From positions 1 to 30,093 of the IMG/VR virus record IMGVR_UViG_2802429218_000005: a DNA stretch of 30,093 nucleotides. One strand, 5' to 3'. This DNA comes from a virus. Taxonomy: Duplodnaviria; Heunggongvirae; Uroviricota; Caudoviricetes. The notes under the pieces are model-generated. The model was not told the origin of the DNA. It did not search any database and saw nothing but the letters and a program-made list of their open reading frames with translations. Below, one piece after another: positions 2,930 to 19,399 of this stretch. A program made the position numbers and the translations under genes. Every line of letters starts with the position of its first letter. Within the stretch, counting starts at the first letter, position 1.

Positions 2930-3796
2930 CTAAGCGAGGTTCTTGTTTTCAAATTGTTCCGGACTGAGGCCGCCACACCAACTGTGCCGCCGCCACCGAT
3001 TGTAATCACATTCGATATAATTAAACACCGTTGCCCGCATTATTTCCCGGCTGATAAAGTGTTCTCCATGGATACATTCCACTTTCAGCGAATGAAAGAA
3101 GCTTTCCACGCAGGCATTATCGTAGCAGCAACCTTTTGCGCTCATACTTCCACGCAGATTATGCCGCTTCAGTTGCGCCTGATAATCTGCTGAACAGTAC
3201 TGGCCTCTACGGTCCGTGTGAACGATAACGTTCCGGGGCCTCTTACGCCGCCACAGCGCCATCTGCAGGGCATCGCAGGCCAGTTGCGCCGTCATGCGTG
3301 GCGACATTGACCAGCCAATAACGGCACGTGACCACAGGTCAATGACCACTGCCAGATACAGCCAGCCTTCATCTGTACGTAAGTACGTGATGTCTCCTGC
3401 CCACTTCTGGTTCGGGCCACTGGCGTAAAAATCCTGCTCCAACAGATTTTCTGACACAGGCAGGCCGTGTGCGCGGTAGCTGACCGGGCTGAACTTCCGG
3501 GAGGCCTTTGCCCTCAGTCCCTGACGGCGCAGGCTTGCCGCCACGGTTTTTACGTTAAAGGGGTAACCCTGAGCACGCAGTTCATCCGTCAGGCGTGGGG
3601 CACCGTAACGCTGTTTTGACCGGGTAAAAGCCGCGAGGACAACGCTGTCGCAGTGTTGGCGGAACTGCTGACGCGTGCTTATCCTTGTCCGCCGCTGACA
3701 CCACGTATACCAGCCGCTGCGGGCCACCCGGAGCACGCGGCACATTGCTTTGATGCTGAACTCAGCCTGATGTTTTTCAATAAAGACATACTTCAT
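2930..3796 (-). CDS. insF: IS3 transposase OrfB (DDE catalytic component; normally expressed as OrfAB by -1 frameshift)
   Basis: Translation [32 protein letters not shown]... with integrase-core motifs ([18 protein letters not shown]); frame is -1 relative to orfA. Confidence 0.9.
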
Positions 3797-4101
3797 TTCA
3801 GGCGCTTCGCGAAGTATGTCGCGGCCTTTTGGAGGATAGCCAGCTCTTCATCCCGTTCTGCCAGCTGGCGTTTGAGACGTGCAATCTCGGTAGACATCTC
3901 CAGTTCACGTTCAGAAGACGTCTGCTGATTTTGCTGTTTACTGCGCCAGTTGTAGAGCTGTGATTCATACAGGCTGAGTTCACGGGCTGCGGCAGTAACA
4001 CCGATGCGTTCAGCAAGCTTCAGGGCTTCACTGCGAAATTCAGGCGAATGCTGTTTACGGGGTTTTTTACTGGTTGATACTGTTTTTGTCATGTGAGTCA
4101 C
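3793..4101 (-). CDS. insE: IS3 transposase OrfA (HTH component)
   Basis: Translation [35 protein letters not shown]... matches IS3 OrfA as I recall it; ATGA overlap with orfB. Confidence 0.9.
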
Positions 4102-4213
4102 CTCTGACTGAGAGTTTACTCACTTAGCCGCGTGTCCACTATTGCTGGGTAAGATCACTATGCAGTAAAAGTGTAAGATCAAGTTTGAGCTAATACAAGT
4201 TAGCCTCTTTTCA

Positions 4214-4426
4214 CTAGTGAGCCATTTTATAGTCCCTTAATGCATTTTTAAGTAACTCAGTTTGCTCATAAGCATCATCATAATTATAAATTCCGGTAGC
4301 AGAATAATACTCTTCGATGCATAGAATATTTATCAATGGTTCACAAATCTCTTTAATAAACTCCTTGTTGTTATCGGCAAAAATAATTTTTATTCCTTCC
4401 AAAACAAAGCTATTATAATCAGCCAT
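4214..4426 (-). CDS. Hypothetical small acidic protein (70 aa) downstream of trbL
   Basis: Strong Shine-Dalgarno AAGGAGGTGGATA upstream of ATG; AT-rich; no family recognised. Confidence 0.5.
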   Translation of the reverse strand: MADYNSFVLEGIKIIFADNNKEFIKEICEPLINILCIEEYYSATGIYNYDDAYEQTELLKNALRDYKMAH

Positions 4427-4495
4427 TATCCACCTCCTTACAGGTGTTTAGTGGAAGCGTCAGTTAACGTTACCGCGCTAACTGACGCGTCTAAA

Positions 4496-5899
4496 TCAAG
4501 ATTTTTTACTGCCAGTAAAACTATCACCCTCAAACTCATCCTGTTCGTGGTTACTCTGACGATCGGCTGTGTGTTTACGTATTTGATTCGCTATTTCCCC
4601 ACCAACAGTCTGTTGTGTTCGGATAGAATTAGCACTTCCCTTCATCATCTGATACTCCGATGCTCCATTAGACAGCCCGCTCGCCATGTGAGAAGCCATG
4701 CGGCCAGCTCGTGAGAATGATGAAGCAAACCCCTGGCTTCCTCCGCTGACGCTACCTGTATTGCTCCCTGCAGAAGAACCACCGGAACCGCCTGATGGTT
4801 GTCCTCCAGAAGTATCTACGGAACCGGTATCTTCCCCGCCGCCAAATCCTCCACCTAAACCACCTTTATCACCAGAACCAGATTCTTCGGCCATCGCCGC
4901 TTGTGCAGATTCAAATGCTGCTTTTAGAGCGGAAGCACCACCACTGACTTGAGCTGTAGCGCTCATTGCCATTGCCCCAGCGCCACTGATTGCAGTAGTA
5001 GCAGCGCCAGTAATCATACCTGCTCCAAAACCACCGATCCCTTGTAAGGACGCTCCTCCAACAACGCCTGATAACAACAACGGTAATTTATTCGTCAATA
5101 CTAAAAGAATAATTGACGCCAGAAGTAAAACAATAAGACTATTAAGATCAGGAATATCATTTTTAATAATAGAAAAATACTGATCTAAAAATGATTGCCC
5201 AATCCCAATGATTAATGTCATTGTAAATAATTGAATACCAATCGATAATACTGTGCGTAAGTAATTTATTGCTATATCAGAAGTCCATTTCGAGCCACCA
5301 AACCCAAGAAAAATAACTCCTGCATAACACAACACCCATGCAGAAACTAACATTATTAGCATATTTATCGCGATAAGCGCCATTACTACTAATACTATTA
5401 TCGCGACGGTTATCATTATGGTCGAAATCATTGGAGACCAAATTGATGCCGCTGAACTGACCTTTGTTAATATCACAAAAGCTATATCAACTATGCTGGA
5501 GGGTGAAATACCAGTACTTGTTCCTAAAGCATTTGCTGCAAGTTGTCTCATTGAGTTAATTATAGATTGTGCTATGGCTGGGCCGTTGATTAAAAGATAA
5601 TAAAAAAAACCTATCACGGCAAAAAAACGAACTATTTCTGCAAGTGCATTGATTAAACCTTCCCCTTGCATCGCCAACATACCAAATGTCCAAACCATAC
5701 TGATTAATACCAGCCCCCAGAAGAGCCAATTCGCATAATCACCAATTACTAATGACCATGTGCTGGCTACTTGCTGAAACTTATCTAATAACGTATCAAG
5801 TAAACCGCTACTATCTAATTGACCAGCATAAGCATTTACAGAAAACAAAAAAATCATTCCCCAAAAAGTGAGTTTGCTTACTATTCTCATAATTACCAT
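4496..5899 (-). CDS. trbL: Conjugal transfer protein TrbL/VirB6-like (polytopic membrane protein with Gly/Ser-rich C-terminal tail)
   Basis: Multiple hydrophobic TM segments followed by a GGxGG/SGGS-rich low-complexity tail, typical of TrbL; sits in trbJ-K-L order. Confidence 0.75.
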   Translation of the reverse strand: MVIMRIVSKLTFWGMIFLFSVNAYAGQLDSSGLLDTLLDKFQQVASTWSLVIGDYANWLFWGLVLISMVWTFGMLAMQGEGLINALAEIVRFFAVIGFFYYLLINGPAIAQSIINSMRQLAANALGTSTGISPSSIVDIAFVILTKVSSAASIWSPMISTIMITVAIIVLVVMALIAINMLIMLVSAWVLCYAGVIFLGFGGSKWTSDIAINYLRTVLSIGIQLFTMTLIIGIGQSFLDQYFSIIKNDIPDLNSLIVLLLASIILLVLTNKLPLLLSGVVGGASLQGIGGFGAGMITGAATTAISGAGAMAMSATAQVSGGASALKAAFESAQAAMAEESGSGDKGGLGGGFGGGEDTGSVDTSGGQPSGGSGGSSAGSNTGSVSGGSQGFASSFSRAGRMASHMASGLSNGASEYQMMKGSANSIRTQQTVGGEIANQIRKHTADRQSNHEQDEFEGDSFTGSKKS

Positions 5900-8813: not shown

Positions 8814-9080
8814 GTGAGAATTGTGAGGACAAAAAAGGCTGAACCAAGCACTGTAGGTGAAATACTTAATGAAGAATTCTTGAAACCCATGAATATGTCT
8901 TTATGTAAATTAGCGGAATTGACAGGAATGTCTTATAGTAGAATAAGAAAAATTATAATACATAATGATCCAATATCCATAAAAGAAGCATTATTACTTG
9001 CTGAAGTATTTCACACGGATCCGGATTTTTGGATAAACTTACAAAATGTTCATCATTACTGGCATCAAAAATGTAACTGA
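8814..9080 (+). CDS. XRE-family HTH protein, HigA-like antitoxin/antidote (solitary); alternative GTG start at 8823
   Basis: STVGEILNEEFLKPMNMSLCKLAELTGMSYSRIRKII...EALLLAEVFHTDPDFWINLQNVHHYW matches HigA/VapI-type antidote pattern; SD aaggtgag upstream of GTG 8823. Confidence 0.7.
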   Translation: MRIVRTKKAEPSTVGEILNEEFLKPMNMSLCKLAELTGMSYSRIRKIIIHNDPISIKEALLLAEVFHTDPDFWINLQNVHHYWHQKCN

Positions 9081-9134
9081 TATCAAAATCTGCCGTTAAT
9101 AATGTGTATTATCAACGGCATGTATTTAACAAGA

Positions 9135-10880
9135 TTAATTATACTCAATGCGGAATAATTTATTCTCTTGAGACAATTTCACAATGAAGTTTTTCTCATC
9201 GCTCAGTTCTTTTGGAAGTTTATCCTTCAATATAGATGCAACATACTGAATTTGAGATTTGTAACGTTCAACAAGATTAGCTATTCTGACCAGTTGATTG
9301 CCATGCATAAGTTCTTTTTTGTCATTTAACAAAAAATGGAAACAAGGAATGTTTTCTTCATCTGCAAATAAAATATATGCAATATCAAAACAAACAATTT
9401 CTCCTTGTTTTTTTCCTGAACTAAAATTGGTATTAAACGAACTGAATTTGTATATTTTTTTTCCTGTTTTTGATGCTGTAACAATATCATATTTCAAAGC
9501 ATATTGTTCACCGTATAACTCTTGAGACACAGTTGAAAAATATTTATTGAACTTATTTACTTGAGATTGAACTTCTAACTCAAAATCATCAGAAAATAAA
9601 TTATTGTTAATAGCATCAACTTGAGCGTTTAACTCTTCGATATTCTTTTCAGTTTTCTCAATTTGGTTAATAATGGCTTCGAACTCACCTTTTTTTCGGT
9701 GTTTTTCATTCAATTCTAAGACTAGTCCTTCAAGTTCATCAAACGAACCGCTTTTATTTATATTTTCAACTAATTCTTTTTCTTTGGCAAGAAGTATAGT
9801 TAAATCTTCTTGAGTTTTACTAATCTCACTAGTTATTACAGGTAATTCTTTTGATATGAATTTAACTTTTTCTTCAACCATTTGGTTGTGGAAGGAAAGT
9901 AATGATTCAAATTTTACCTGAATATTCTTTATATTATTACTGGCTTCAGTATATAGATCTTTCAATTGATTAGTGTCAATTTCCATCTTGCCACTTTCAA
10001 TATCTTTTACCGCCTCAACTATGAGTTCTTTCCGTAATTTAAGCTTACTTAATTTTGAACCTATAGTGCTCAATTGATACTTAATATCATCCAAAGCATT
10101 GAGATCATTTTCAAAGTTAGGGTTGATATAGAAAGTAGACTTTTTCAGATCTAAATCATTAATTTCCGAAATCAATAATGCTAGTGATGTCTCATATGCA
10201 GTGCGAGTTTGTTTAGACTCCAACCTATTCTTGAAGGTTGTTTCCATTCGGATGCTAGCTAACAAATTTTGTTTAAGAGCTCCTTTTCCAAAATCACATC
10301 CAAGAAGAAATAAATGAAGGGTCTCATATTCATCATCACGAGTAAATGAGCTTAGTGTTCTCAGCGTATGGGTGACACTGAGTTCTTTATATCTTATATT
10401 ATTAGATATTATTTGGGAAAAGGTAGGCTTATTACCATAATGGCCAGAAACTAATACGTCTGTTAACGTTTCTTCAAACTCTTCGATTGTTTTTTGTAGT
10501 CCATTAATTCTTCTGATACATTTTTTACGAGAGAGAAAATTTCGCTCAATGACGATGGTCTTAGCTAGCGGATCATCTAAATCCTCAACAAGTGTTAGGG
10601 TTATTAAAACCTCTGTTTCAATCAAGAAGTTTTTAACAAGTGTATATTCGCCCTTTTTAGTTTCTGGGTCAGTATAAATGCCTTTAGCATCTGCGCCTAA
10701 ACAAAAATCGACTAACATTAATACTGTTGTTTTACCAACATTATTGCCAGTGGTTTTGGTTGACTCGGTTGATGCTTCATCAACTGGCGTTTCATCAACG
10801 ATCAAATTCAAACCAGCATGAAACTTTATTAAGCGTATAACCCCATCTTTATTGGCTATCTGGAGAGATTTTATGAACAT
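9135..10880 (-). CDS. SMC/Rad50-like ABC ATPase with central coiled coil (LmuB-like / ABC-3C ATPase candidate)
   Basis: N-terminal FHAGLNLIVDE then Walker A GNNVGKTT (res 45-52); long E/K/L-rich central region; C-terminal Walker B-like ILFADEE; AT-rich; last gene of coupled 3-gene operon. Confidence 0.7.
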   Translation of the reverse strand: MFIKSLQIANKDGVIRLIKFHAGLNLIVDETPVDEASTESTKTTGNNVGKTTVLMLVDFCLGADAKGIYTDPETKKGEYTLVKNFLIETEVLITLTLVEDLDDPLAKTIVIERNFLSRKKCIRRINGLQKTIEEFEETLTDVLVSGHYGNKPTFSQIISNNIRYKELSVTHTLRTLSSFTRDDEYETLHLFLLGCDFGKGALKQNLLASIRMETTFKNRLESKQTRTAYETSLALLISEINDLDLKKSTFYINPNFENDLNALDDIKYQLSTIGSKLSKLKLRKELIVEAVKDIESGKMEIDTNQLKDLYTEASNNIKNIQVKFESLLSFHNQMVEEKVKFISKELPVITSEISKTQEDLTILLAKEKELVENINKSGSFDELEGLVLELNEKHRKKGEFEAIINQIEKTEKNIEELNAQVDAINNNLFSDDFELEVQSQVNKFNKYFSTVSQELYGEQYALKYDIVTASKTGKKIYKFSSFNTNFSSGKKQGEIVCFDIAYILFADEENIPCFHFLLNDKKELMHGNQLVRIANLVERYKSQIQYVASILKDKLPKELSDEKNFIVKLSQENKLFRIEYN

Positions 10881-11100
10881 ATTCCAATTTCCCCTTTGGA
10901 TTTAATTCAACTATTCCTGCTAGGTATAACCAGTCAAGAGATAAAACAAAAATTGATATAGACATTTCAATTTTTTTCTTTGTTTCGTAAAAAAGATCTA
11001 TCAATTCAATTTCATCGAAACGTTTCAGCGTATCTATAATAAACCCACCGTTATAATATAAGCTATCTTTAGGATGAATGTCCTTTGGTAACAACATCAT
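10849..11100 (-). CDS. Small overlapping ORF (83 aa), candidate middle component of three-gene system
   Basis: Overlaps upstream gene end and downstream gene start by 32 nt each (translational coupling); no motif recognised. Confidence 0.4.
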   Translation of the reverse strand: MMLLPKDIHPKDSLYYNGGFIIDTLKRFDEIELIDLFYETKKKIEMSISIFVLSLDWLYLAGIVELNPKGKLEYVHKISPDSQ

Positions 11101-12049
11101 TCACTCCGTTAGGGTCCCTAAAAATTTTACAGCGTATGAACGCGTCCACTGCAAGTATACTAACACAAAGCTCCAGTTCCTCTAATGGTATTTGTGTAAA
11201 ATTTGCACTTTTTCTGACCATTTCAACAGAGCTGTCAATTATTTTAAAAAATAGCTCATCTCCAGTGTATTGTGTACTCAATTTTACGAAGATAGTTCTA
11301 AAGGAAGACAAAACTGAAAGGCTTGAGTTTTTACCCATCTGGTTGAACTCTGAATAAATGCGGGATACTTTTCCATGATGGATTTTGTAATCTTCAATAA
11401 TATATTCAGCTGCATTCAAATTATTAAATGTAATCTTGTCAGTTACATCGAATGGTTGCGGGAAGTCAGTAGTTTCAACATTAGAAAAATCCTCCTTAGC
11501 TAATATATTTATAACAGCAGCAATATTTGTTTCGATTAAAACATTATCAGATTCCTCTTGTAACTCATTTTTTAGAAAACCGTGTATTTCTTTCTGTTTT
11601 GTTATGTCAAGATGTGAAATAACATTAAGTATCGATTTTACATCATGAATATCTTGCTGCGGTATAAAAACCAAAGCATGAGGATTAGTGTAAGTTTTAT
11701 TTCTTAAATCACTAGCATCTTTTGCAATTGATATAAATTTAAACTGATGGCCTTTATATAATCTTAAGTCTTTGTTCAAGGCTGAATCAATTTTTGTTTT
11801 AGTTGCAGTTGATGAAACCTGTAATACTATCTTCCCATTCTCATCGATAAGATCGATACCCTCAAAATTATGCTTCTCTTGATTAGTATTCTTTAGGGAA
11901 TACCCAAATAATAAATTAAAGAAGTGAACATAAAAATCTTCACAATGAAGATTATAGTTAAGAATATTTAACTTCCCTCTTAATTCAACGCTATAGCATA
12001 GCAACGTAAGCCTTTTCTCACATAAATCAAAATAAATAGATCTGTTCAC
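11069..12049 (-). CDS. Hypothetical 326-aa protein, candidate effector (LmuA-position) of three-gene defence-like operon
   Basis: First gene of the operon; AT-rich; no confidently recognisable catalytic motif by eye. Confidence 0.6.
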   Translation of the reverse strand: MNRSIYFDLCEKRLTLLCYSVELRGKLNILNYNLHCEDFYVHFFNLLFGYSLKNTNQEKHNFEGIDLIDENGKIVLQVSSTATKTKIDSALNKDLRLYKGHQFKFISIAKDASDLRNKTYTNPHALVFIPQQDIHDVKSILNVISHLDITKQKEIHGFLKNELQEESDNVLIETNIAAVINILAKEDFSNVETTDFPQPFDVTDKITFNNLNAAEYIIEDYKIHHGKVSRIYSEFNQMGKNSSLSVLSSFRTIFVKLSTQYTGDELFFKIIDSSVEMVRKSANFTQIPLEELELCVSILAVDAFIRCKIFRDPNGVNDVVTKGHSS

Positions 12050-12302
12050 ACATATTATCCTTAAACTATAAACTAATCCGATATTATGAACTTAGGTAAA
12101 GTAGAAAAACTCTTCACAGATCTTACAGCATCTACGAGCTGGTTCAAGGTATGTTGAGATGGATTGAGATGTGTAGCGTATCTTCTCATTCCAAAAAGAA
12201 ACCTGCCACAATTTTGCCACACTCACAACGCGCAAAAATGCACATTTGTGTTAAGAAAAGCAAAACAACGCAACAGTAACCAGATGATTTTATTAGAAAA
12301 AA

Positions 12303-12348
12303 TGGTGCCGATAATAGGAGTCGAACCTACGACCTTCGCATTACGAAT
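12303..12348 (-). tRNA. tRNA-Thr(CGU) 3' fragment, 46 nt from anticodon loop to CCA (thrW-like att-core remnant, not a complete gene)
   Basis: Reverse complement reads ATTCGTAATGCGAAGGTCGTAGGTTCGACTCCTATTATCGGCACCA; sequence 5' of the anticodon loop does not continue as tRNA. Confidence 0.7.
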
Positions 12349-12571
12349 CATAAGAATCCGCTTCTAATTCAAAGTATTACCCCATCAACACTGCGCTCAC
12401 ACGTCCCACCACATCAAAACATGTAAAGCCTTGCAAGCCATTGTGAGGCCTTATGTGTCTCAGTTTTGTCCCACTACGACCTGCACAGAAAATAAGAAAA
12501 TAGCGGTGATATCAAACAGTACAGAAGTCTTTTTTCTTTCAAATGGAGAAACTGATTAACCCGTTTAATTG

Positions 12572-12796
12572 TACTCCTCATGGGCAATCAGCAGTCCTCA
12601 GAGTAATGGAATGGCAGAAAGGTTCGTGAAAACGATGAAGGAAGACTACATCGCGTTCATGCCGAAACCGAATGTAAGAACGGCATTGCATAATCTTGCA
12701 GTGGCGATCGAACATTACAATGAAAACCATCCGCACAGTGCGTTGGGTTATCGCTCTCCGCGAGAATATCGACGTCAGCGGGTAACGTTAACTTAA
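12572..12796 (+). pseudogene. DDE transposase/integrase-core C-terminal fragment (IS3/IS481-like), 5'-truncated
   Basis: [18 protein letters not shown] ... [14 protein letters not shown] are C-terminal rve-domain motifs; in-frame stop immediately upstream, no N-terminal part present. Confidence 0.55.
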
Positions 12797-12837
12797 GATA
12801 CACCCCCTGTCTGGAAATAAGGGGGCAAGAACAATGA

Positions 12838-13590
12838 TCAGATTCCCTGGTGAGTAAGAATTTTACTTTCTGAACTCCTCTGAGAGTATTGACTTGGAGA
12901 AACACCAAAATAACGTCTAAATACATAAGTAAAGTATGAGACACTGACATAACCACAGACCTTAGCTACTTTACTAATAGGATAACAACGAGTGCTGAGT
13001 AAATATTCAGCCATTTGCATCCTCTCATCAAGTATGATCTTACTGAATGATACCCCCTCTTCTTTCAATTTCCTCTTTAGTAAACTTTCGCTGAGATATA
13101 ATCTTGATGATATATCCTTAAGACGCCATGGTGCAGATAAATCCGTATGAATAATCGTTTTAACTTTAGCCCCTGTGCTTTTCAAACATCCAAACAGAAA
13201 TACTCCAAATTGTTTTTCAGAAGAAAATGCAGAGAGACATGTAAAAGCAATAGACTCATCAAAAGTTTCTATGTATTCAGCACAGTGATTAGCCCAACTA
13301 ATTAATCCTTTAATTAAACTGAAGTCAGCAAAGTTTATTTTTAAATAAGATGGATATTCCCTACAATCAGAAATATCCCTTAAGTTATTAGCTTTCAAAT
13401 AGCGACTAATAAACTCAGCGCCAAAATCCGCCACTATCACTCTTTCAGGATATGTCAGGAAAAAATCTCTATAGCTAGAGTCGACAAGTACAGATAAACC
13501 TCTATCCAGAAACACACTCTCTTTTCCGAAATAAACATCAAAGGACTCCAAAATCAATATAACTGAACATGTAGTTGCCATATCATCCAC
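12838..13590 (-). CDS. AraC-family transcriptional regulator (AppY/EnvY-like subfamily)
   Basis: C-terminal HTH region WRLKDISSRLYLSESLLKRKLKEEGVSFSKIILDERMQMAEYLL...CGYVSVSYFTYVFRRYFGVSPSQY resembles AppY/EnvY as recalled; AT-rich. Confidence 0.8.
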   Translation of the reverse strand: MDDMATTCSVILILESFDVYFGKESVFLDRGLSVLVDSSYRDFFLTYPERVIVADFGAEFISRYLKANNLRDISDCREYPSYLKINFADFSLIKGLISWANHCAEYIETFDESIAFTCLSAFSSEKQFGVFLFGCLKSTGAKVKTIIHTDLSAPWRLKDISSRLYLSESLLKRKLKEEGVSFSKIILDERMQMAEYLLSTRCYPISKVAKVCGYVSVSYFTYVFRRYFGVSPSQYSQRSSESKILTHQGI

Positions 13591-14164
13591 CCAATTTAAC
13601 TGAAACCAGGATGAAGTATATGCATATAAAGTTCACTTTGCCAAACTTCAGTATAAAAAACCACATAAAAAATAGGGTGTGATAAAAAATACCGTAAAAA
13701 TAAAGCAAAGGATTATAAATTCCGTTACAGTTACAAATGATACTTAAGAAACAATTCCTTAGAAAACCTTATTTACAGCCAATAAGTAAGACACTTATAT
13801 GATATCAAGTTTTCATAAAACATAACTAGGCTAAATAGCTGCGCCTAATACCGCTACACTTTTGCCATCCCATGTTTGCCTCCGGGTATTGACCCCTTCT
13901 CTACGCAACTTCAGTTCCCACCACCAACTTTGCGGCAGCTTTGTAGGATCAATGTCTAAAAGAATAATGGTGACCGATAAGAAAACGACTGAATAACTGC
14001 AGATTTTCGCTCGAAACCTTCCTGTCAGATCCATAGCGAATCAAGTGCTGAATGTCACAGTATCGAACAGAAAACAGTGACGATCTAACCCTTCAAGAAT
14101 ATTCTACGATTGTTCTGTTTAGGAAAAGCAAGGCGGGAAGTCGGGAGATAAGTCATTGATAAAG

Positions 14165-14230
14165 TGGCGGAGAGAGGGGGATTTGACCCCCCGGTAGAGT
14201 TGCCCCTACTCCGGTTTTCGAGACCGGTCC
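14165..14230 (-). tRNA. tRNA-Ser(CGA) 3' fragment, about 66 nt, with T-arm substitution (GTTC to GGTC); serU-like att-core remnant
   Basis: Reverse complement reads GGACCGGTCTCGAAAACCGGAGTAGGGGCAACTCTACCGGGGGGTCAAATCCCCCTCTCTCCGCCA; 5' part of tRNA absent. Confidence 0.7.
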
Positions 14231-14309
14231 AATCATCAAACGAAACATAAAATTAATTCACATTATGAGGAAAAGTATCTTTTTTGTACTTGTAAATTCA
14301 AAGGCTTAG

Positions 14310-15179
<870 letters not shown>

Positions 15180-15239
15180 GTCTTTAAGTGATAAGCATAA
15201 ACCGCAGCACGATCTTCTTGCATACGACGTGCTACGGTT

Positions 15240-15794
15240 TCATTTATCTCCGACCGGAAACTTCTTATACAGTGTCGATATACCAACATCATAGATGATC
15301 GCCACCTTCTGGCGAGGAACGCCTGATGCAATTAATCGTCCGGCCTGCTCCCATTGTTCTGGTGTAAGTTTGGGGCGACGTCCACCAATTCGTCCCTGTG
15401 CGCGAGCTGCTTCTAGTCCAGCTTTTGTTCGTTCAACAATCAGTTCACGCTCCATTTCAGCCAGGGCACCCATCACATGAAAGAAAAAGCGCCCCATTGG
15501 GGTACTGGTATCAATTGAATCCGTCAGACTACGAAAGTTGATGCCTCGTTCGCGCAACTCCTCCACCAGCACGACAAGATGCCGCATACTGCGCCCCAGT
15601 CGGTCCAGTTTCCAGACCACCAGCGTGTCACCTGCCGATAATGTCCTGAGCAGCTTTTTCAGTCCTGGTCTGTCGGACTTTGTACCGCTTATCTTGTCTT
15701 CAAAAATTAGCTCACACCCTGCACAGTTCAGCGCATTGCGTTGTAGATCGGTATTCTGGTCATTTGTTGATACACGTACATAGCCAATAAGCAT
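15240..15794 (-). CDS. pin: Serine recombinase DNA invertase, Pin/Gin/Hin/Cin family
   Basis: MLIGYVRVSTNDQNTDLQRNAL...VVWKLDRLGRSMRHL...GRIGGRRPKLT nearly identical to my recollection of e14 Pin; SD AGGGGGA 5 nt upstream of ATG at 15794; track N-terminal extension is spurious. Confidence 0.9.
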   Translation of the reverse strand: MLIGYVRVSTNDQNTDLQRNALNCAGCELIFEDKISGTKSDRPGLKKLLRTLSAGDTLVVWKLDRLGRSMRHLVVLVEELRERGINFRSLTDSIDTSTPMGRFFFHVMGALAEMERELIVERTKAGLEAARAQGRIGGRRPKLTPEQWEQAGRLIASGVPRQKVAIIYDVGISTLYKKFPVGDK

Positions 15795-15847
15795 GTTAAA
15801 TCCCCCTGGTAAAAGCAGGAATGATGCCATTTGCTTGTTATTTCTTC

Positions 15848-16204
15848 ATTTTCATAAACGTTGGTTTGGGAGAAGCCAGATATGTCATTCAGCGAGGAGC
15901 TAATGCCAATGGTGCGTGGATACGCTGGTCAGATGGTGCAATAGAAGTCTTTGGAACGGGGGGTTCTAATGATAATGGACTGGCTAAAGTCGTTTATCCA
16001 ATTGCGCTACCTAAGCTTTCACGTTTTATCAGCATAGCGGAAAGAATAGGAACGGATTATGGGGGCACATCTAATAACGTTCACGTTTCAATGATCGTGG
16101 ATGACCAGGTCACTAATACCGGTTTTTATGTCCGCTGCCAGATGTACGACGGAACACCATCAACAAGTGCTTTTTCCTGGAGGGTTTATTGTGCGCCTGT
16201 TTAA
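15848..16204 (+). CDS. Alternate tail-fibre C-terminal variable segment (promoterless in present orientation)
   Basis: Frame runs through crossover site encoding NVGLGE, matching NLGLGE encoded at the other site within the expressed fibre gene. Confidence 0.5.
   Translation: MFINVGLGEARYVIQRGANANGAWIRWSDGAIEVFGTGGSNDNGLAKVVYPIALPKLSRFISIAERIGTDYGGTSNNVHVSMIVDDQVTNTGFYVRCQMYDGTPSTSAFSWRVYCAPV
15849..15874. repeat. Invertase crossover site (gix/pix-like), copy proximal to pin
   Basis: ttttcataaacgttggtttgggagaa; reverse complement TTCTCCCAAACCAACG... shares 14 bp with site at 17460 and resembles gix/hix consensus. Confidence 0.7.
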
Positions 16205-16388
16205 TCCTGTTACTTTGACTGAAGTAATCCCCGGTCTTCATGACGTGACCGGGGCTGTTGAATTACCAGAAGATAACTGGTTTTTTACTGCATCTGAAAT
16301 CCCTGAAGGAATGGAAATATCTGTTAACGAGAAGGGAGAACCCATTCTGATTGAGATTAAACCGTCTCAGGAGGAACTGGCCAGATGA
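16190..16388 (+). CDS. Short alternate tail-fibre assembly (Tfa-like) ORF, 66 aa, GTG start overlapping upstream stop
   Basis: VRLFNPVTLTEVIPGLHDVTGAVELPEDNWFF resembles Tfa N-termini; much shorter than typical Tfa. Confidence 0.4.
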
Positions 16389-16962
16389 CATCTGGCGCGG
16401 TGCTGGTATCTGTTGCCATCACCGCGTCAGTGTAATCCAGCACGGCGTTAAGTCGGGTGTTTTCTGCCTGCGTCAGCTTCCGCCCGGCCTGCAATTTCAG
16501 TTGAATCAGACTAATGGAAACCATTGCAGCATCAATCAGCGACTGCCGCTGTGTTTCTGCCATGTCTACTGCTGCTCTATGCTGTGCCTCGGTATCCGTC
16601 ACCCATTTCTCACCATCCCATTTATCGTATGGCGTTAACGGGGCGATAGTGGTTGTCTTTTCAGGGTAATCACCCGGAGCTGTGATTTCTTTTGATTCTC
16701 CTGTTTCGGTGCTATAGACGATTTCACCGCGATGGTCTGGCACATATTCCCATGAGTTAAAATCTGCAGAACGGCAAATTGCATAACCAGCTTTATATGA
16801 GCCAGGAGCATCTAAACAGGAACATGCCGGGATACCGACACCCACAGCAAGATATTCGGTTGATGTGGAAATATATTCTCGTGTTTCACCATCATAATTA
16901 TAAACGGTAATATCTCCCGCCTTTGTGGCGATGAGTTCCTTATTTAATATAGCTTTATCCAT
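16357..16962 (-). CDS. Tail fibre assembly protein (Tfa)
   Basis: Typical Tfa architecture with C-terminal ...RLNAVLDYTDAVMATDTSTAPDVIWPVPP; immediately downstream of fibre gene. Confidence 0.85.
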   Translation of the reverse strand: MDKAILNKELIATKAGDITVYNYDGETREYISTSTEYLAVGVGIPACSCLDAPGSYKAGYAICRSADFNSWEYVPDHRGEIVYSTETGESKEITAPGDYPEKTTTIAPLTPYDKWDGEKWVTDTEAQHRAAVDMAETQRQSLIDAAMVSISLIQLKLQAGRKLTQAENTRLNAVLDYTDAVMATDTSTAPDVIWPVPPETV

Positions 16963-17762
16963 CAGGCAGCCCTCACGATATAATTAAAGGCAATGTTACG
17001 GGGTCGATTTTCGTTTGCAGTTGGAACAATTCTTGAAGCATCAAGGCCAATCACTTTTGGGTAAACACTGCCCTCGGACCTTTCTGTCACCATACTTCTG
17101 ACTAAGGAGAAATAACTATTGTTCGTTGAGGGGTTCAAAGGCACCACTGCCCCCTTAAACGAGCCTACTGATTCCCATATTGAATAATTTTCGGTGTTTA
17201 CAGTCTTGAACTCACCATAGATATTACGTATGGCATCGCCCTGAGCGGATAATATTGTTCTCCCCGCATCCGCACTACGCCCATCATCCCAGCCACGAAT
17301 AAATTCACCGCGTAAATCAGGCAATTTATTTGTCGGGTAAGCCTTTGCCAGTTCCGGGTATTCTTCAGCAGAAAAAGCCGCACCATTGCATTTCAGCCAG
17401 CCTGTCGGCGGAGTGGCGGAAGGCCACGGAACAGGCACACCGACAGGTAATGCAGAGCCTTCTCCCAAACCAAGGTTTTCGAGAGCCGTTTTCACCGTGC
17501 CATCCGATTTGATATCGCCAAACGGATTCTTGCGGCTTAACAGCAGCGCACGAAGCGCGGTAAGCAGCTGGTCGTGCCGCGCCTTCTCCAGACTGGCACC
17601 GGATGCCTCCACCACGCTGCAGAGTTCTTCCTGCAACATATCAAAGTAGTCATCATCCAGATCGGTGGCAGGCGTGCCAGTCTGGGGGTTACCACGGGTA
17701 AAACCGTTCTTACCCGCGCCGAACTTATCCTTCTGCGCGGTTTTCGTGTCTATACGATGCAT
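16962..17762 (-). CDS. Tail fibre protein (constant N-terminal part about 100 aa outside invertible segment, variable C-terminal part inside)
   Basis: Collar-like region [23 protein letters not shown]...[16 protein letters not shown]; crossover site lies within codons for ALENLGLGE. Confidence 0.85.
17460..17485. repeat. Invertase crossover site (gix/pix-like), copy inside tail-fibre gene
   Basis: ttctcccaaaccaaggttttcgagag, inverted relative to the 15849 site. Confidence 0.7.
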
Positions 17763-17765
17763 GGA

Positions 17766-18350
17766 TTACTCCGGATATTTAAAAATTACGTAGGTATGCG
17801 AAGGGGAGAGTTTGTTAAGCACACATTCGACGACGGTGTCGCCCCAGATACGCAGCGCGGTATCACAGGGATCGCCACATGTCATCCAGGTGGTGTTGGT
17901 GGCGGCTGGCATGTTGACCTGCCAGTAATACCGCCATTCCGGCGCATTCACCGCGTCAGTACAGGCAGATGAGCAGGTGAACGTGCTTTTGTCGTATCGC
18001 GTGATGGTAGCGTCTGGTCTGCCCAGGGCAGCAAGCTGTGCAAGGTAAAAATCCTCATTGATGCCGCCCGCCAGGTTAACCTTCGCATCCAGTCGTTGCT
18101 GACGCTGGCGAAGGGTCTGTGTCCCTGCGGGAATACATTCATCCGGCAGACCGCACAGACGCTCCCAGCGGTTTATCAGTTCAGTGGTGGTGCGCGGATC
18201 CAGCTCCCGCATCAGGGCATCCGCACGCTGATGAACGCGGGTTAATGACGGTGCCGCACCGGCAATCGCCGGATCTCTGGCTGACCACGCCGGACCGGGT
18301 GGCAACAGTGCCGACAACAGACGGATGTAATCATCGTTTGTCACGTCCAT
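17766..18350 (-). CDS. Baseplate/tail protein, Mu gp48-like (YmfQ/DUF2313-like)
   Basis: Position between baseplate J-like and tail fibre; N-terminus [22 protein letters not shown] as in e14 YmfQ-type proteins as recalled. Confidence 0.75.
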
Positions 18351-19399
18351 GAAATCGTCCCCAGTACCGCCAGTTCATTTTTTGCAATGGAGATATTGTC
18401 CGCCGGTGCAAGCAACTGATGGCTGTATTCCCCGTTCGCACCGGAAATCGCTTCACTGATACGTGACACCTTCAGTTCTCCCTGCGGATAACCATCACGC
18501 AGCAGGAACGAACGCAACTCCGCGGTAATGGCAGCCCGTATTTCTGGTGTGTCCGGCGTCACGCGGATATGAAAATCCACCGTATGTGCCACCGGCCTGA
18601 ATACATACAAATCAGAGCCTGCCACCGGGGCCAGTGGCCCGATATGTTGTCTTGCTGCCGTTTCCGTTGATTCTTCCGGAATGGGATTAATCAGGTCACT
18701 GCTGGCAATCATCACACCGACAGTTCCCGTTCCCATCCAGTGGCGGTATGTCCATGCACGGGTAATGCCTGGCACTTCTTTAGCCCAGACGACATAGTCC
18801 CCGTCAGCCCCGCCCTGAGGCGTCCAGTAATACCGCTCAATGACGCGGGCGCGCCACGTTTCCAGCTCTTCAGTATCAAATCCGCCTGTCAGGGTGTCAG
18901 CCACACCGGAAGACGGCAGACCATTCACCGGCGTGACCAGGATTAATGCCGTACCGTCGTCAGCGTTACCGACCGCGCCTGTAGTTGAGCAAGTGATCGG
19001 CACACGCAGGACACCACCGGAGCTGGTTGCATCGGCAGTTGCCGTGTACTGAACCAGGTCATCGCGCTGAATCACGCTCCCGGCAGTCACCTTCAGGCCA
19101 TCGCTGACACCTTCCCAGCGCATATACCCGCTGGCAGCCGTGGCCCCCTTGCGCGGACACCGTTTCATCGCAGCATGTCGCGCCAGCCAGGACTCATCGC
19201 ACAGGTCAGGCAGCATATTCATTGCCAGATAATCGATGTACCCGTAAACCGTATGCAGCGCCGCCGCATACACCTTTGCCCGCACGTCTTCATCCATGCG
19301 CCGGAGCGTGTCGCTGACGTCCAGCCTGGCGAATAAATCGTTACGGAGCATACTGATATTTTCTGCCAGCGTCGGGCGCTGAAATTCACTGTCCGCCAT
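18341..19399 (-). CDS. Baseplate J-like protein (Mu gp47-like)
   Basis: Size and position in conserved Mu-like baseplate gene order; overlapping start/stop with neighbours. Confidence 0.8.

Follow-up and report, generated by a model that had tools for sequence, protein, structure and literature searches.

We analysed a stretch of viral DNA of 30,093 nucleotides (nt), the whole of which we call the window (IMG/VR record IMGVR_UViG_2802429218_000005, positions 1 to 30,093). The subject of this report is a tail-fibre segment in the window that lies between inverted crossover sites, next to a gene for a serine DNA invertase, and in particular an open reading frame (ORF) of 65 amino acids (aa) that follows the silent fibre tip inside this segment. 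Positions 9000 to 15200 are 99.5% identical to Escherichia coli strain TW14425, which identifies the window as E. coli DNA. Downstream of the tail module the gene order is fibre, Caudo_TAP protein, two convergent plus-strand ORFs, serine recombinase and GIY-YIG protein. Because E. coli relatives with the same layout are annotated as ymfQ, phage tail protein, tfaE, two hypothetical proteins and pinE, the arrangement reads as an e14-type tail end. The features of the segment and its surroundings are as follows.

15240–15794, minus strand: pin, serine DNA invertase of 184 aa with a Resolvase N-domain and HTH_7
15705–15776, minus strand: candidate recombinational enhancer, pin nt 19–90, the putative positional equivalent of the P1 cin enhancer
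15821–16204, plus strand: pin-proximal ORF, a 17-aa leader outside the segment followed by the 110-aa alternative tip (tip 15872–16204)
15849–15874: pix, Pin-proximal crossover site, TTTTCATAAACGTTGGTTTGGGAGAA, central dinucleotide TT at 15861–15862
15861–17473: invertible segment, 1613 base pairs (bp) between the crossover dinucleotides; inversion in silico keeps both reading frames
16191–16388, plus strand: 65-aa ORF, putative stand-alone N-domain of a tail fibre assembly protein (Tfa); GTG start, 65 codons plus stop, conserved core at residues 1–55
16357–16962, minus strand: tfaE-like tail fibre assembly protein of 201 aa; follows the fibre gene, with the overlap ATGA at the fibre stop
16962–17473, minus strand: fibre tip as presently oriented, the variable C-terminal 166 aa, of StfE type and with a phage tail collar domain
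17460–17485: pix, Pin-distal crossover site, reverse complement CTCTCGAAAACCTTGGTTTGGGAGAA, central AA at 17472–17473; inside the fibre gene, at the NLGLGE codons
17474–17762, minus strand: constant N-terminal part of the fibre, about 96 codons to the crossover; both fibre forms share the first 100 residues, up to and including LGLGE

The invertible segment and its invertase

The two pix sites, each of 26 bp, are inverted with respect to one another. They form a 20-nt inverted repeat that is 95% complementary and contains an exact 14-bp core, TTGGTTTGGGAGAA, made up of the central TT and the identical inner half-site common to both. When up to two mismatches were allowed, the window contained the core at no other position than these two; the number expected by chance is 0.24. 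Both sites are imperfect palindromes with identical central dinucleotides, as in the Gin, Hin, Cin and Pin (Din) systems, and both are in frame: the fibre reads NLGLGE on the minus strand, and ORF 15821–16204 reads NVGLGE on the plus strand. The first-pass annotation of this DNA, made from the letters alone, had given the sites at 15849..15874 and 17460..17485, the 14-bp core and an in-frame N(L/V)GLGE junction at each, and all of these were recovered.

Inversion has been shown experimentally for the P segment of the K-12 e14 prophage, at TTGGTTTGGGAGAAGG / CCTTCTCCCAAACCAA (PMC12529663). At both sites the window is identical to the first 15 of the 16 bases of the K-12 e14 repeat TTGGTTTGGGAGAAGG. 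The pix sites can likewise be aligned to cixL and cixR as annotated in P1, where the annotated crossover falls on the same central TT dinucleotide. The comparison with e14, Mu and P1 that had been proposed as a check on the segment is thus answered by a core that is the K-12 e14 repeat and by sites that align with those of P1.

In the present orientation the fibre gene (16962–17762, minus strand) encodes 266 aa, of which 100 are constant and 166 variable. The fibre matches the Pfam family Collar (PF07484) at 1.2e-15 over residues 108–155, and its 166-aa tip is 95% identical to the tip of E. coli D1. The 201-aa protein that follows matches Caudo_TAP in Pfam at 6.7e-30 (residues 78–199) and phrog_105 at 1e-95; its counterparts in E. 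coli relatives are annotated as tfaE. The earlier reading of the present products, a fibre C-terminus of 166 aa and a Tfa of 201 aa, agrees with these numbers.

We inverted positions 15861–17473 in silico at the central TT/AA. The reading frame was kept, and the 266-aa fibre became a fibre of 210 aa with its first 100 residues unchanged, followed by 110 alternative residues and then by the GTG ORF at 16191–16388. The fibre C-terminus would be swapped, as had been predicted. The segment therefore offers alternative C-termini for one constant N-terminus, and each C-terminus has a helper gene of its own downstream. The predicted alternative fibre part of about 110 aa was correct; the ORF that had been listed with 66 aa consists of 65 residues and a stop codon.

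The invertase has the N-terminal catalytic domain with Ser9 and the C-terminal helix-turn-helix domain of serine recombinases (PF00239 at 1.3e-51, PF02796 at 3.9e-13). Its residues 1–181 align end to end with Mu Gin (PDB 3UJ3/4M6F), the best solved relative being 3UJ3 (E 1e-95). Identity to Mu Gin is about 80% and includes the nucleophilic, catalytic Ser9, and the protein is 97–99% identical to the annotated pinE of E. coli STEC1575 and D1. The maximal ORF extends over 15240–15830, as in the first-pass annotation; the alignment to Mu Gin places the homologous start at MLIGYVRVS, so that the gene itself is better given as 15240–15794. By these comparisons the pin gene is intact.

In the P1 annotation the recombinational enhancer occupies nt 19–90 of cin. 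The corresponding stretch of pin is 78% identical to that of P1, and the whole gene is 75% identical. We also compared synonymous-codon identity among eleven pin homologues (the window and relatives). It peaks at 0.53–0.66 in codons 1–40, whereas the overall value is 0.46 and codons 116–145 are at about 0.3. The coincidence of the raised synonymous identity with the position of the P1 cin enhancer is suggestive only.

Of 5426 complete E. coli genomes, 115 carry the cassette. A 600-nt junction of the constant part and the alternative tip, flipped in silico, had end-to-end matches in five complete E. coli genomes, at 93.5–96.7% identity. The annotation of strain FDN-24 shows the flipped form, with an ORF of 210 aa ahead of the 65-aa protein WP_001236015.1. 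The arrangement of the window was found over at least 80% of positions 15100–17900 in seven genomes. Both orientations thus occur among relatives.

Two chicken isolates, DG341-1 and DG342-2, have chromosomes of equal length (5,067,659 bp) and carry, in the same P2-like prophage, a cassette that is about 99% identical over the stretch of the tip and small ORF. The orientations of the cassette are opposite in the two isolates: a centre of 1616 bp is colinear, while the flanks of 1933 bp, at 100% identity, run the other way, and the breakpoints are at the 14-bp cores. The difference between these sibling isolates is a precise Pin-type inversion. The first-pass annotation had asked for both orientations to be sought in a population; among relatives there are five flipped genomes, seven unflipped genomes and the inverted pair. 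Its description of a Pin-type invertase with an invertible fibre segment is borne out by an intact, Gin-like Pin, by a core identical to that of e14, and by the presence of both orientations in relatives.

These data also bear on the idea that the inverted repeat is a chance similarity, or reflects nothing but a conserved LGLGE peptide motif, and that no inversion takes place. The window does show one orientation only, and LGLGE is kept at fibre junctions that have no invertase, for example in Kosakonia. Against this, the window has just two copies of the exact 14-bp core, the core is identical to sites at which inversion was demonstrated in K-12, an intact invertase is adjacent, and a precise inversion separates sibling isolates whose cassettes are about 99% identical. 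We regard the chance-repeat reading as effectively refuted.

A single pix-like sequence, TTGGTTTGGCAGAAG, was found in a Kosakonia sacchari prophage at the junction of the constant part and the tip of the fibre (about positions 3665–3691 of the locus). This locus has neither an invertase nor a partner site, so that its arrangement is a fixed one, which may have descended from an invertible one.

The 65-aa protein and the tip it follows

In the present orientation the alternative tip is not joined to the fibre gene. The silent tip ORF begins with its own ATG and a 17-aa leader, MMPFACYFFIFINVGLGE, which is encoded outside the invertible segment (15821–15871, plus strand). Leaders like MMPFACYFFIFINVGLGE are annotated in many relatives, and the layout is that of StfE/StfE2 in K-12.

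The 110-aa tip matches the Pfam family Gp53-like_C (PF21882) with 21.0 bits, below the curated cut-off of 24.9 (E 5e-4). An AF2 model of the tip as a monomer (pLDDT 78.5) was compared to solved structures using Foldseek and matched 6CT8, 6CXB, 6CL5, 6CL6 and 4MTM. These matches, to the foot domains of R2/R1 pyocin fibres and to AP22 gp53, have E values from 3e-5 to 2e-3, a probability of 1.00 and TM scores of 0.53–0.61. With moderate confidence, we predict that the tip has, as a monomer, the foot fold of R-pyocins and AP22 gp53. The predicted fold matches these solved receptor-binding domains, although the sequence identity to the R-type pyocin foot and the C-terminal domain of AP22 gp53 is only 14–19%. 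In the model, the tip has the appearance of a complete receptor-binding domain. The chaperone of R-pyocin fibres is of the Tfa type and full-size.

The 65-aa ORF starts within the end of the tip ORF, with an overlap of 14 nt, and is preceded by GGAGG at 16179–16183. It had no match at E below 0.01 in Pfam and none in NCBIfam. It matched phrog_5400, a family of unknown function, at E 2.6e-23 over profile positions 1–66 of 145, and weakly matched phrog_188, which is Tfa (E 3.6e-4). A profile search of 1.84 billion representatives yielded 41 relatives. The close ones have 55–85 aa, and the distant ones have 123–180 aa with the domain at residues 1–58. Among the distant relatives, P0133 (1.4e-11), P0141 and P0156 combine this N-domain with Caudo_TAP. 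Two others, P0143 and P0144, carry the same N-domain of about 55 aa together with Phage_tail_APC (PF16778), and P0158 carries it with DUF4376 (PF14301). On the evidence of these architectures, the N-domain appears to shuffle between different helper C-modules. Two apparent relatives of 128–131 aa, P0124 and P0136, look like translations of frameshifted reads and were discarded.

In Cronobacter phage JK004 a homologue of the tip (gene_2) is followed by a Caudo_TAP protein of 128 aa (gene_1). The first 64 residues of gene_1 are 34% identical to the short ORF, which ends where the C-domain begins. The alignment to full-length Tfa proteins that the first-pass annotation had suggested thus finds a match in the N-domain of JK004 gene_1 and stops before the C-domain. 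Its label "Tfa-like" is appropriate for the N-terminal, fibre-specific half; the Caudo_TAP C-domain that defines the family is absent.

The JK004 record (93.8 kb, circular) has further features of this kind. At 2987–5387 the gene_2 cassette, which starts at LGE, and gene_1 share their strand with gene_3, the expressed fibre gene of 417 aa. An unannotated gap of 400 nt separates the cassette of gene_2 and gene_1 from gene_3, and an invertase is located at 91204–91740. From its gene order, this could be a multi-cassette arrangement like that of p15B Min.

In the current picture of Tfa, fibre binding falls to a non-conserved N-domain and trimerisation to a conserved helical C-domain (PMC9608196, summarising work on Mu). 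Because of this two-domain picture, and because relatives carry the same N-domain fused to C-modules, we interpret the 65-aa ORF as the N-terminal module alone, that is, as a putative stand-alone Tfa N-domain. Its N-terminal, fibre-specific domain has homologues in recognised Tfa proteins, and its gene lies directly 3' of the cognate fibre and co-varies with the tip type. The Caudo_TAP C-domain, whose core ends in ...W.KYR..L.RVD......WP..P, is missing from the 65-aa ORF, and for this reason the protein is best filed as a Tfa N-domain-only protein and not as a member of the Tfa family. We considered whether a hidden or frameshifted C-domain might be encoded 3' of the short ORF. This was rejected: the sequence there is antisense to tfaE in the window, and in the Kosakonia and Erwinia prophages described below it is an intergenic stretch of 110–130 bp before the sheath gene. 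An AF2 model of the 65-aa protein shows a small beta domain (pLDDT 82.7), which had no significant match among solved structures; the link to Tfa therefore rests on sequence and context and not on fold. No description of an N-domain-only protein or of a truncated Tfa in invertible segments was found in the searchable literature, and an N-domain-only partner appears to be undescribed so far.

When 5.8 billion proteins were searched, the 65-aa family was represented by 141 clusters, almost all with lengths of 57–90 aa. The family is spread across Enterobacterales, with clusters from Escherichia, Enterobacter, Salmonella, Kosakonia, Cronobacter, Hafnia, Yersinia and Citrobacter. The alignment has a core of 55 residues, MRLFNP.T.TEVIPG.HD..GA.ELP.DNWFF...EIP.G..L.VN..GEP.L.., followed by 2–10 variable residues. 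In the window this tail of about ten residues (KPSQEELAR) is antisense read-through of the last tfaE codons. Across 15 loci the core has a median pN of 0.23 and a median pS of 0.76, and dN/dS is 0.06–0.2 where dS could be computed. The 55-residue core is under purifying selection.

The context of the ORF is conserved as well. A Shine-Dalgarno (SD) motif of the GGAG type is present 7–10 nt upstream in all 15 loci; in four of them the fibre gene ends earlier, and the SD motif there lies outside the fibre coding sequence. In every confirmed locus a homologue of the same tip (30–97% identity) immediately precedes the short ORF, with either a 14-nt overlap or a gap of 10–16 nt between the two genes. 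P2-like prophages of Kosakonia sacchari, Erwinia aeris and Ca. Erwinia dacicola have the gene order V-W-J-I-H, short ORF, sheath, tube. In these prophages the short ORF is the sole gene between fibre H and sheath FI, and neither an invertase nor a second Tfa is present. Since these loci contain no other Tfa, the short ORF alone fills the position of P2 gpG. In Mu-like prophages of Yersinia enterocolitica and Y. pekkanenii it is likewise the sole Tfa-like gene.

These observations are difficult to reconcile with a degenerate alternate orientation, in which the 65-aa ORF would be a Tfa remnant whose C-domain was deleted against the 3' end of tfaE; the fibre of the flipped state would then fail to assemble, leaving an ON/OFF switch or a segment in decay. 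A remnant would be expected to look in some ways as the ORF does. The defining Caudo_TAP domain is absent, the last ten or so codons are mere antisense read-through of tfaE, and the short form is derived, because full-length relatives with the same N-domain exist. A collection of 50,697 phage records, moreover, shows no isolated phage with the short ORF in use. The truncation point (…GEP[IV]L[IV][DE]), however, is the same in many genera and beside unrelated neighbours, purifying selection acts on a core whose synonymous sites are saturated, and conservation extends to the SD motif and to the coupling with the fibre gene. The short gene also stands alone at the chaperone position in intact-looking P2-like tail modules that have no invertase, and among e14-like prophages with the cassette the flipped state is about as frequent as the state of the window (five versus seven genomes). 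We consider degeneration quite improbable. Because of the purifying selection on it, and because it is the sole gene at the chaperone position in P2-like prophages that cannot invert, the 65-aa ORF is, as far as comparative evidence goes, a conserved small gene and not a product of decay or a broken Tfa. Between the two options that the first-pass annotation had left open, a degenerate ORF or a minimal chaperone, the same two lines of evidence favour the minimal chaperone.

The prophage around the segment

On the minus strand, from position 17766 to the right end, the window contains a Mu-like contractile-tail module that includes further ORFs of the size of tail genes. The two genes nearest to the fibre are listed here.

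17766–18350, minus strand: YmfQ/Mu gp48-like gene, upstream of the fibre gene
18341–19399, minus strand: baseplate J gene, upstream of the fibre gene

On the other side of the segment, pin is adjoined by a gene for a LEM-3-like GIY-YIG domain protein (14355–15179, plus strand), in the place where K-12 e14 has mcrA. This gene (WP_000355484.1) also adjoins pinE in E. coli STEC1575 and D1. Farther to the left, 9135–12049 (minus strand) and its neighbours include two large ORFs of 581 and 326 aa. In near-identical E. coli genomes their counterparts are a DUF2326 protein and proteins of an ABC-three-component (ABC-3C) system, with a HigA antitoxin nearby. To judge from these annotations, this neighbourhood at the end of the prophage looks like a defence island. 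Between the ABC-3C genes and the prophage end are a C-terminal fragment of an IS3-type transposase (12569–12796, plus strand) and an ORF for an AraC-family regulator (12838–13590, minus strand). One ORF translation near 12300 had looked tRNA-like; ARAGORN found no tRNA gene in the window.

The best match to Pin in the phage collection (94.6%) is ON470584.1, Escherichia phage vB_EcoM-689R6, which is labelled a "partial genome". The record also holds icd, mnmA, hflD and other host genes, and because of these it is a prophage prediction across the e14 attachment region at icd and not a packaged genome.

The proposed switch and its relation to known systems

We think it likely that the locus is an e14-type P-segment switch of an E. 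coli prophage with a Mu-like contractile tail, in which both orientations give a working fibre and the 65-aa protein helps or caps its tip. Pin, as a member of the Gin/Hin/Cin family, would recombine the inverted 26-bp pix sites at their central dinucleotide, so that the 1613 bp flip, presumably in this strain as in relatives. To judge from Gin, Hin and Cin, this step probably requires Fis as well as an enhancer within the 5' region of pin. Because the constant 100 codons of the fibre sit outside the segment, each orientation would fuse them to a different receptor-binding tip together with that tip's own helper gene. As sequenced, this would be the 166-aa tip with the collar domain and then the full 201-aa Tfa. 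In the flipped state it would be the 110-aa tip, with its predicted foot fold of the R-pyocin/gp53 type, and then the translationally coupled 65-aa protein. The 65-aa protein may bind the 110-aa tip and assist its folding or cap it. The switch would alternate the host range, or the target range of a tailocin.

We hold only tentatively, at somewhat less than even confidence, the further proposal that a 55-residue N-domain is enough to serve a tip of the pyocin-foot type, be it as its only helper or as a permanent cap, and that the N-domain is an independent module that shuffles, either alone or together with Caudo_TAP, Phage_tail_APC or DUF4376.

Several observations weigh against this interpretation of the locus. 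In current models the C-domain that the 65-aa protein lacks has the role of trimerisation, and fibre assembly without it is unexplained. Among the 50,697 records of the phage collection, no isolated plaque-forming phage has the short ORF in an expressed position, the sole matches being the prophage-derived S164, in which the orientation is silent, and the distant JK004; the function in a virion is therefore unproven. An hhalign comparison of the 65-aa protein to the N-domain of the K-12-type TfaP was positionally sensible but weak (probability 31%, E 5e-4), and we did not use it as evidence. The window strain is known from a single assembled sequence, in one orientation only. With regard to the enhancer, pin is no closer in identity to P1 cin within the enhancer segment than in the rest of the gene, and a scan for the Fis consensus (GNNYRNNWNNYRNNC) gave fewer matches than shuffled sequence.

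A role in host defence would account for part of the same layout: the lysogen would make the pin-proximal ORF, with its outside leader and whichever tip is next to pin, as a free tip protein that blocks receptors against superinfecting phages, and the 65-aa protein would be its folding partner or cap. There is precedent for this in K-12 e14, in which inversion of the P segment is reported to create StfE2, a product of the pin-proximal leader and a gp53-like tip, and StfE2 is reported to block the adsorption of T2 (Kirigo et al. 2025; PMC12529663). ORF 15821–16204 has the same layout, with its own ATG and an outside leader, and at present carries a tip of the gp53/pyocin-foot type and is followed by the 65-aa ORF. 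The tip is from a different sequence family than K-12 StfP, however, and a consensus scan found no sigma-70-like promoter upstream of the pin-proximal ORF, nor upstream of pin. The window keeps a full Mu-like tail module, unlike K-12 e14, which makes a role in a virion or tailocin available. The short gene is also found in the position between fibre and sheath in P2-like prophages that have neither an invertase nor a pin-proximal ORF. On balance we judge the defence role unlikely and prefer the fibre switch with a working helper in each orientation.

The inversion system of the window belongs with those of e14, Mu and P1, a kind of switch that is already known. Its closest counterpart is the P segment of K-12 e14 with PinE (stfP/tfaP – tfaE/stfE). 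The two have the same crossover core, TTGGTTTGGGAGAAG, a constant fibre part downstream of ymfQ/jayE homologues and a pin-proximal leader ORF, and they share the half of the segment that encodes the StfE-type tip and TfaE. They differ in the other half, where the window encodes a 110-aa tip and a 65-aa N-domain-only protein, whereas K-12 has the StfP tip and a TfaP of 137–139 aa. Because of this difference in cassette, the segment has 1613 bp in the window and 1797 bp in K-12. Unlike K-12 e14, the window also has a GIY-YIG gene in place of mcrA and keeps the full set of Mu-like tail genes.

The G segment of Mu (Gin; S/U, S'/U') and the C segment of P1 (Cin) have a homologous invertase (80–83% identity) and 26-bp sites with the same central TT/AA crossover, and they too have the constant N-terminus of the fibre outside and two convergent cassettes of tip plus Tfa inside. 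Their segments are larger, at 3–4.2 kb, and both of their cassettes have a full-length Tfa (U and U', about 175 aa), whereas one cassette of the window has an N-domain-only helper. Like the recognised Tfa proteins (Caudo_TAP; Mu U/TfaMu, lambda Tfa, P2 gpG), the short ORF comes immediately after a fibre gene and is translationally coupled to it, and it is homologous to the N-domain of P0133, P0141, P0156 and JK004 gene_1. Unlike them, it has 55–65 aa instead of 125–200 aa and lacks the C-terminal helical domain.

The switch is thus ordinary, and the N-domain-only helper is a modest but real oddity. A family that has been annotated as "hypothetical protein" or phrog_5400 can now be read as the putative fibre-binding half of Tfa, kept alone under selection. 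If the 65-aa protein suffices for assembly, the two-domain model of Tfa action would have to be qualified, and one widespread class of fibres, at the least, would do without the C-terminal trimerisation domain. The 65-aa protein would then also be a very small cognate helper for the engineering of phage or tailocin fibres with this receptor-binding tip. In the annotation of prophages, if this holds, a fibre gene followed by an ORF of about 60 aa in such elements should not be scored as lacking a chaperone.

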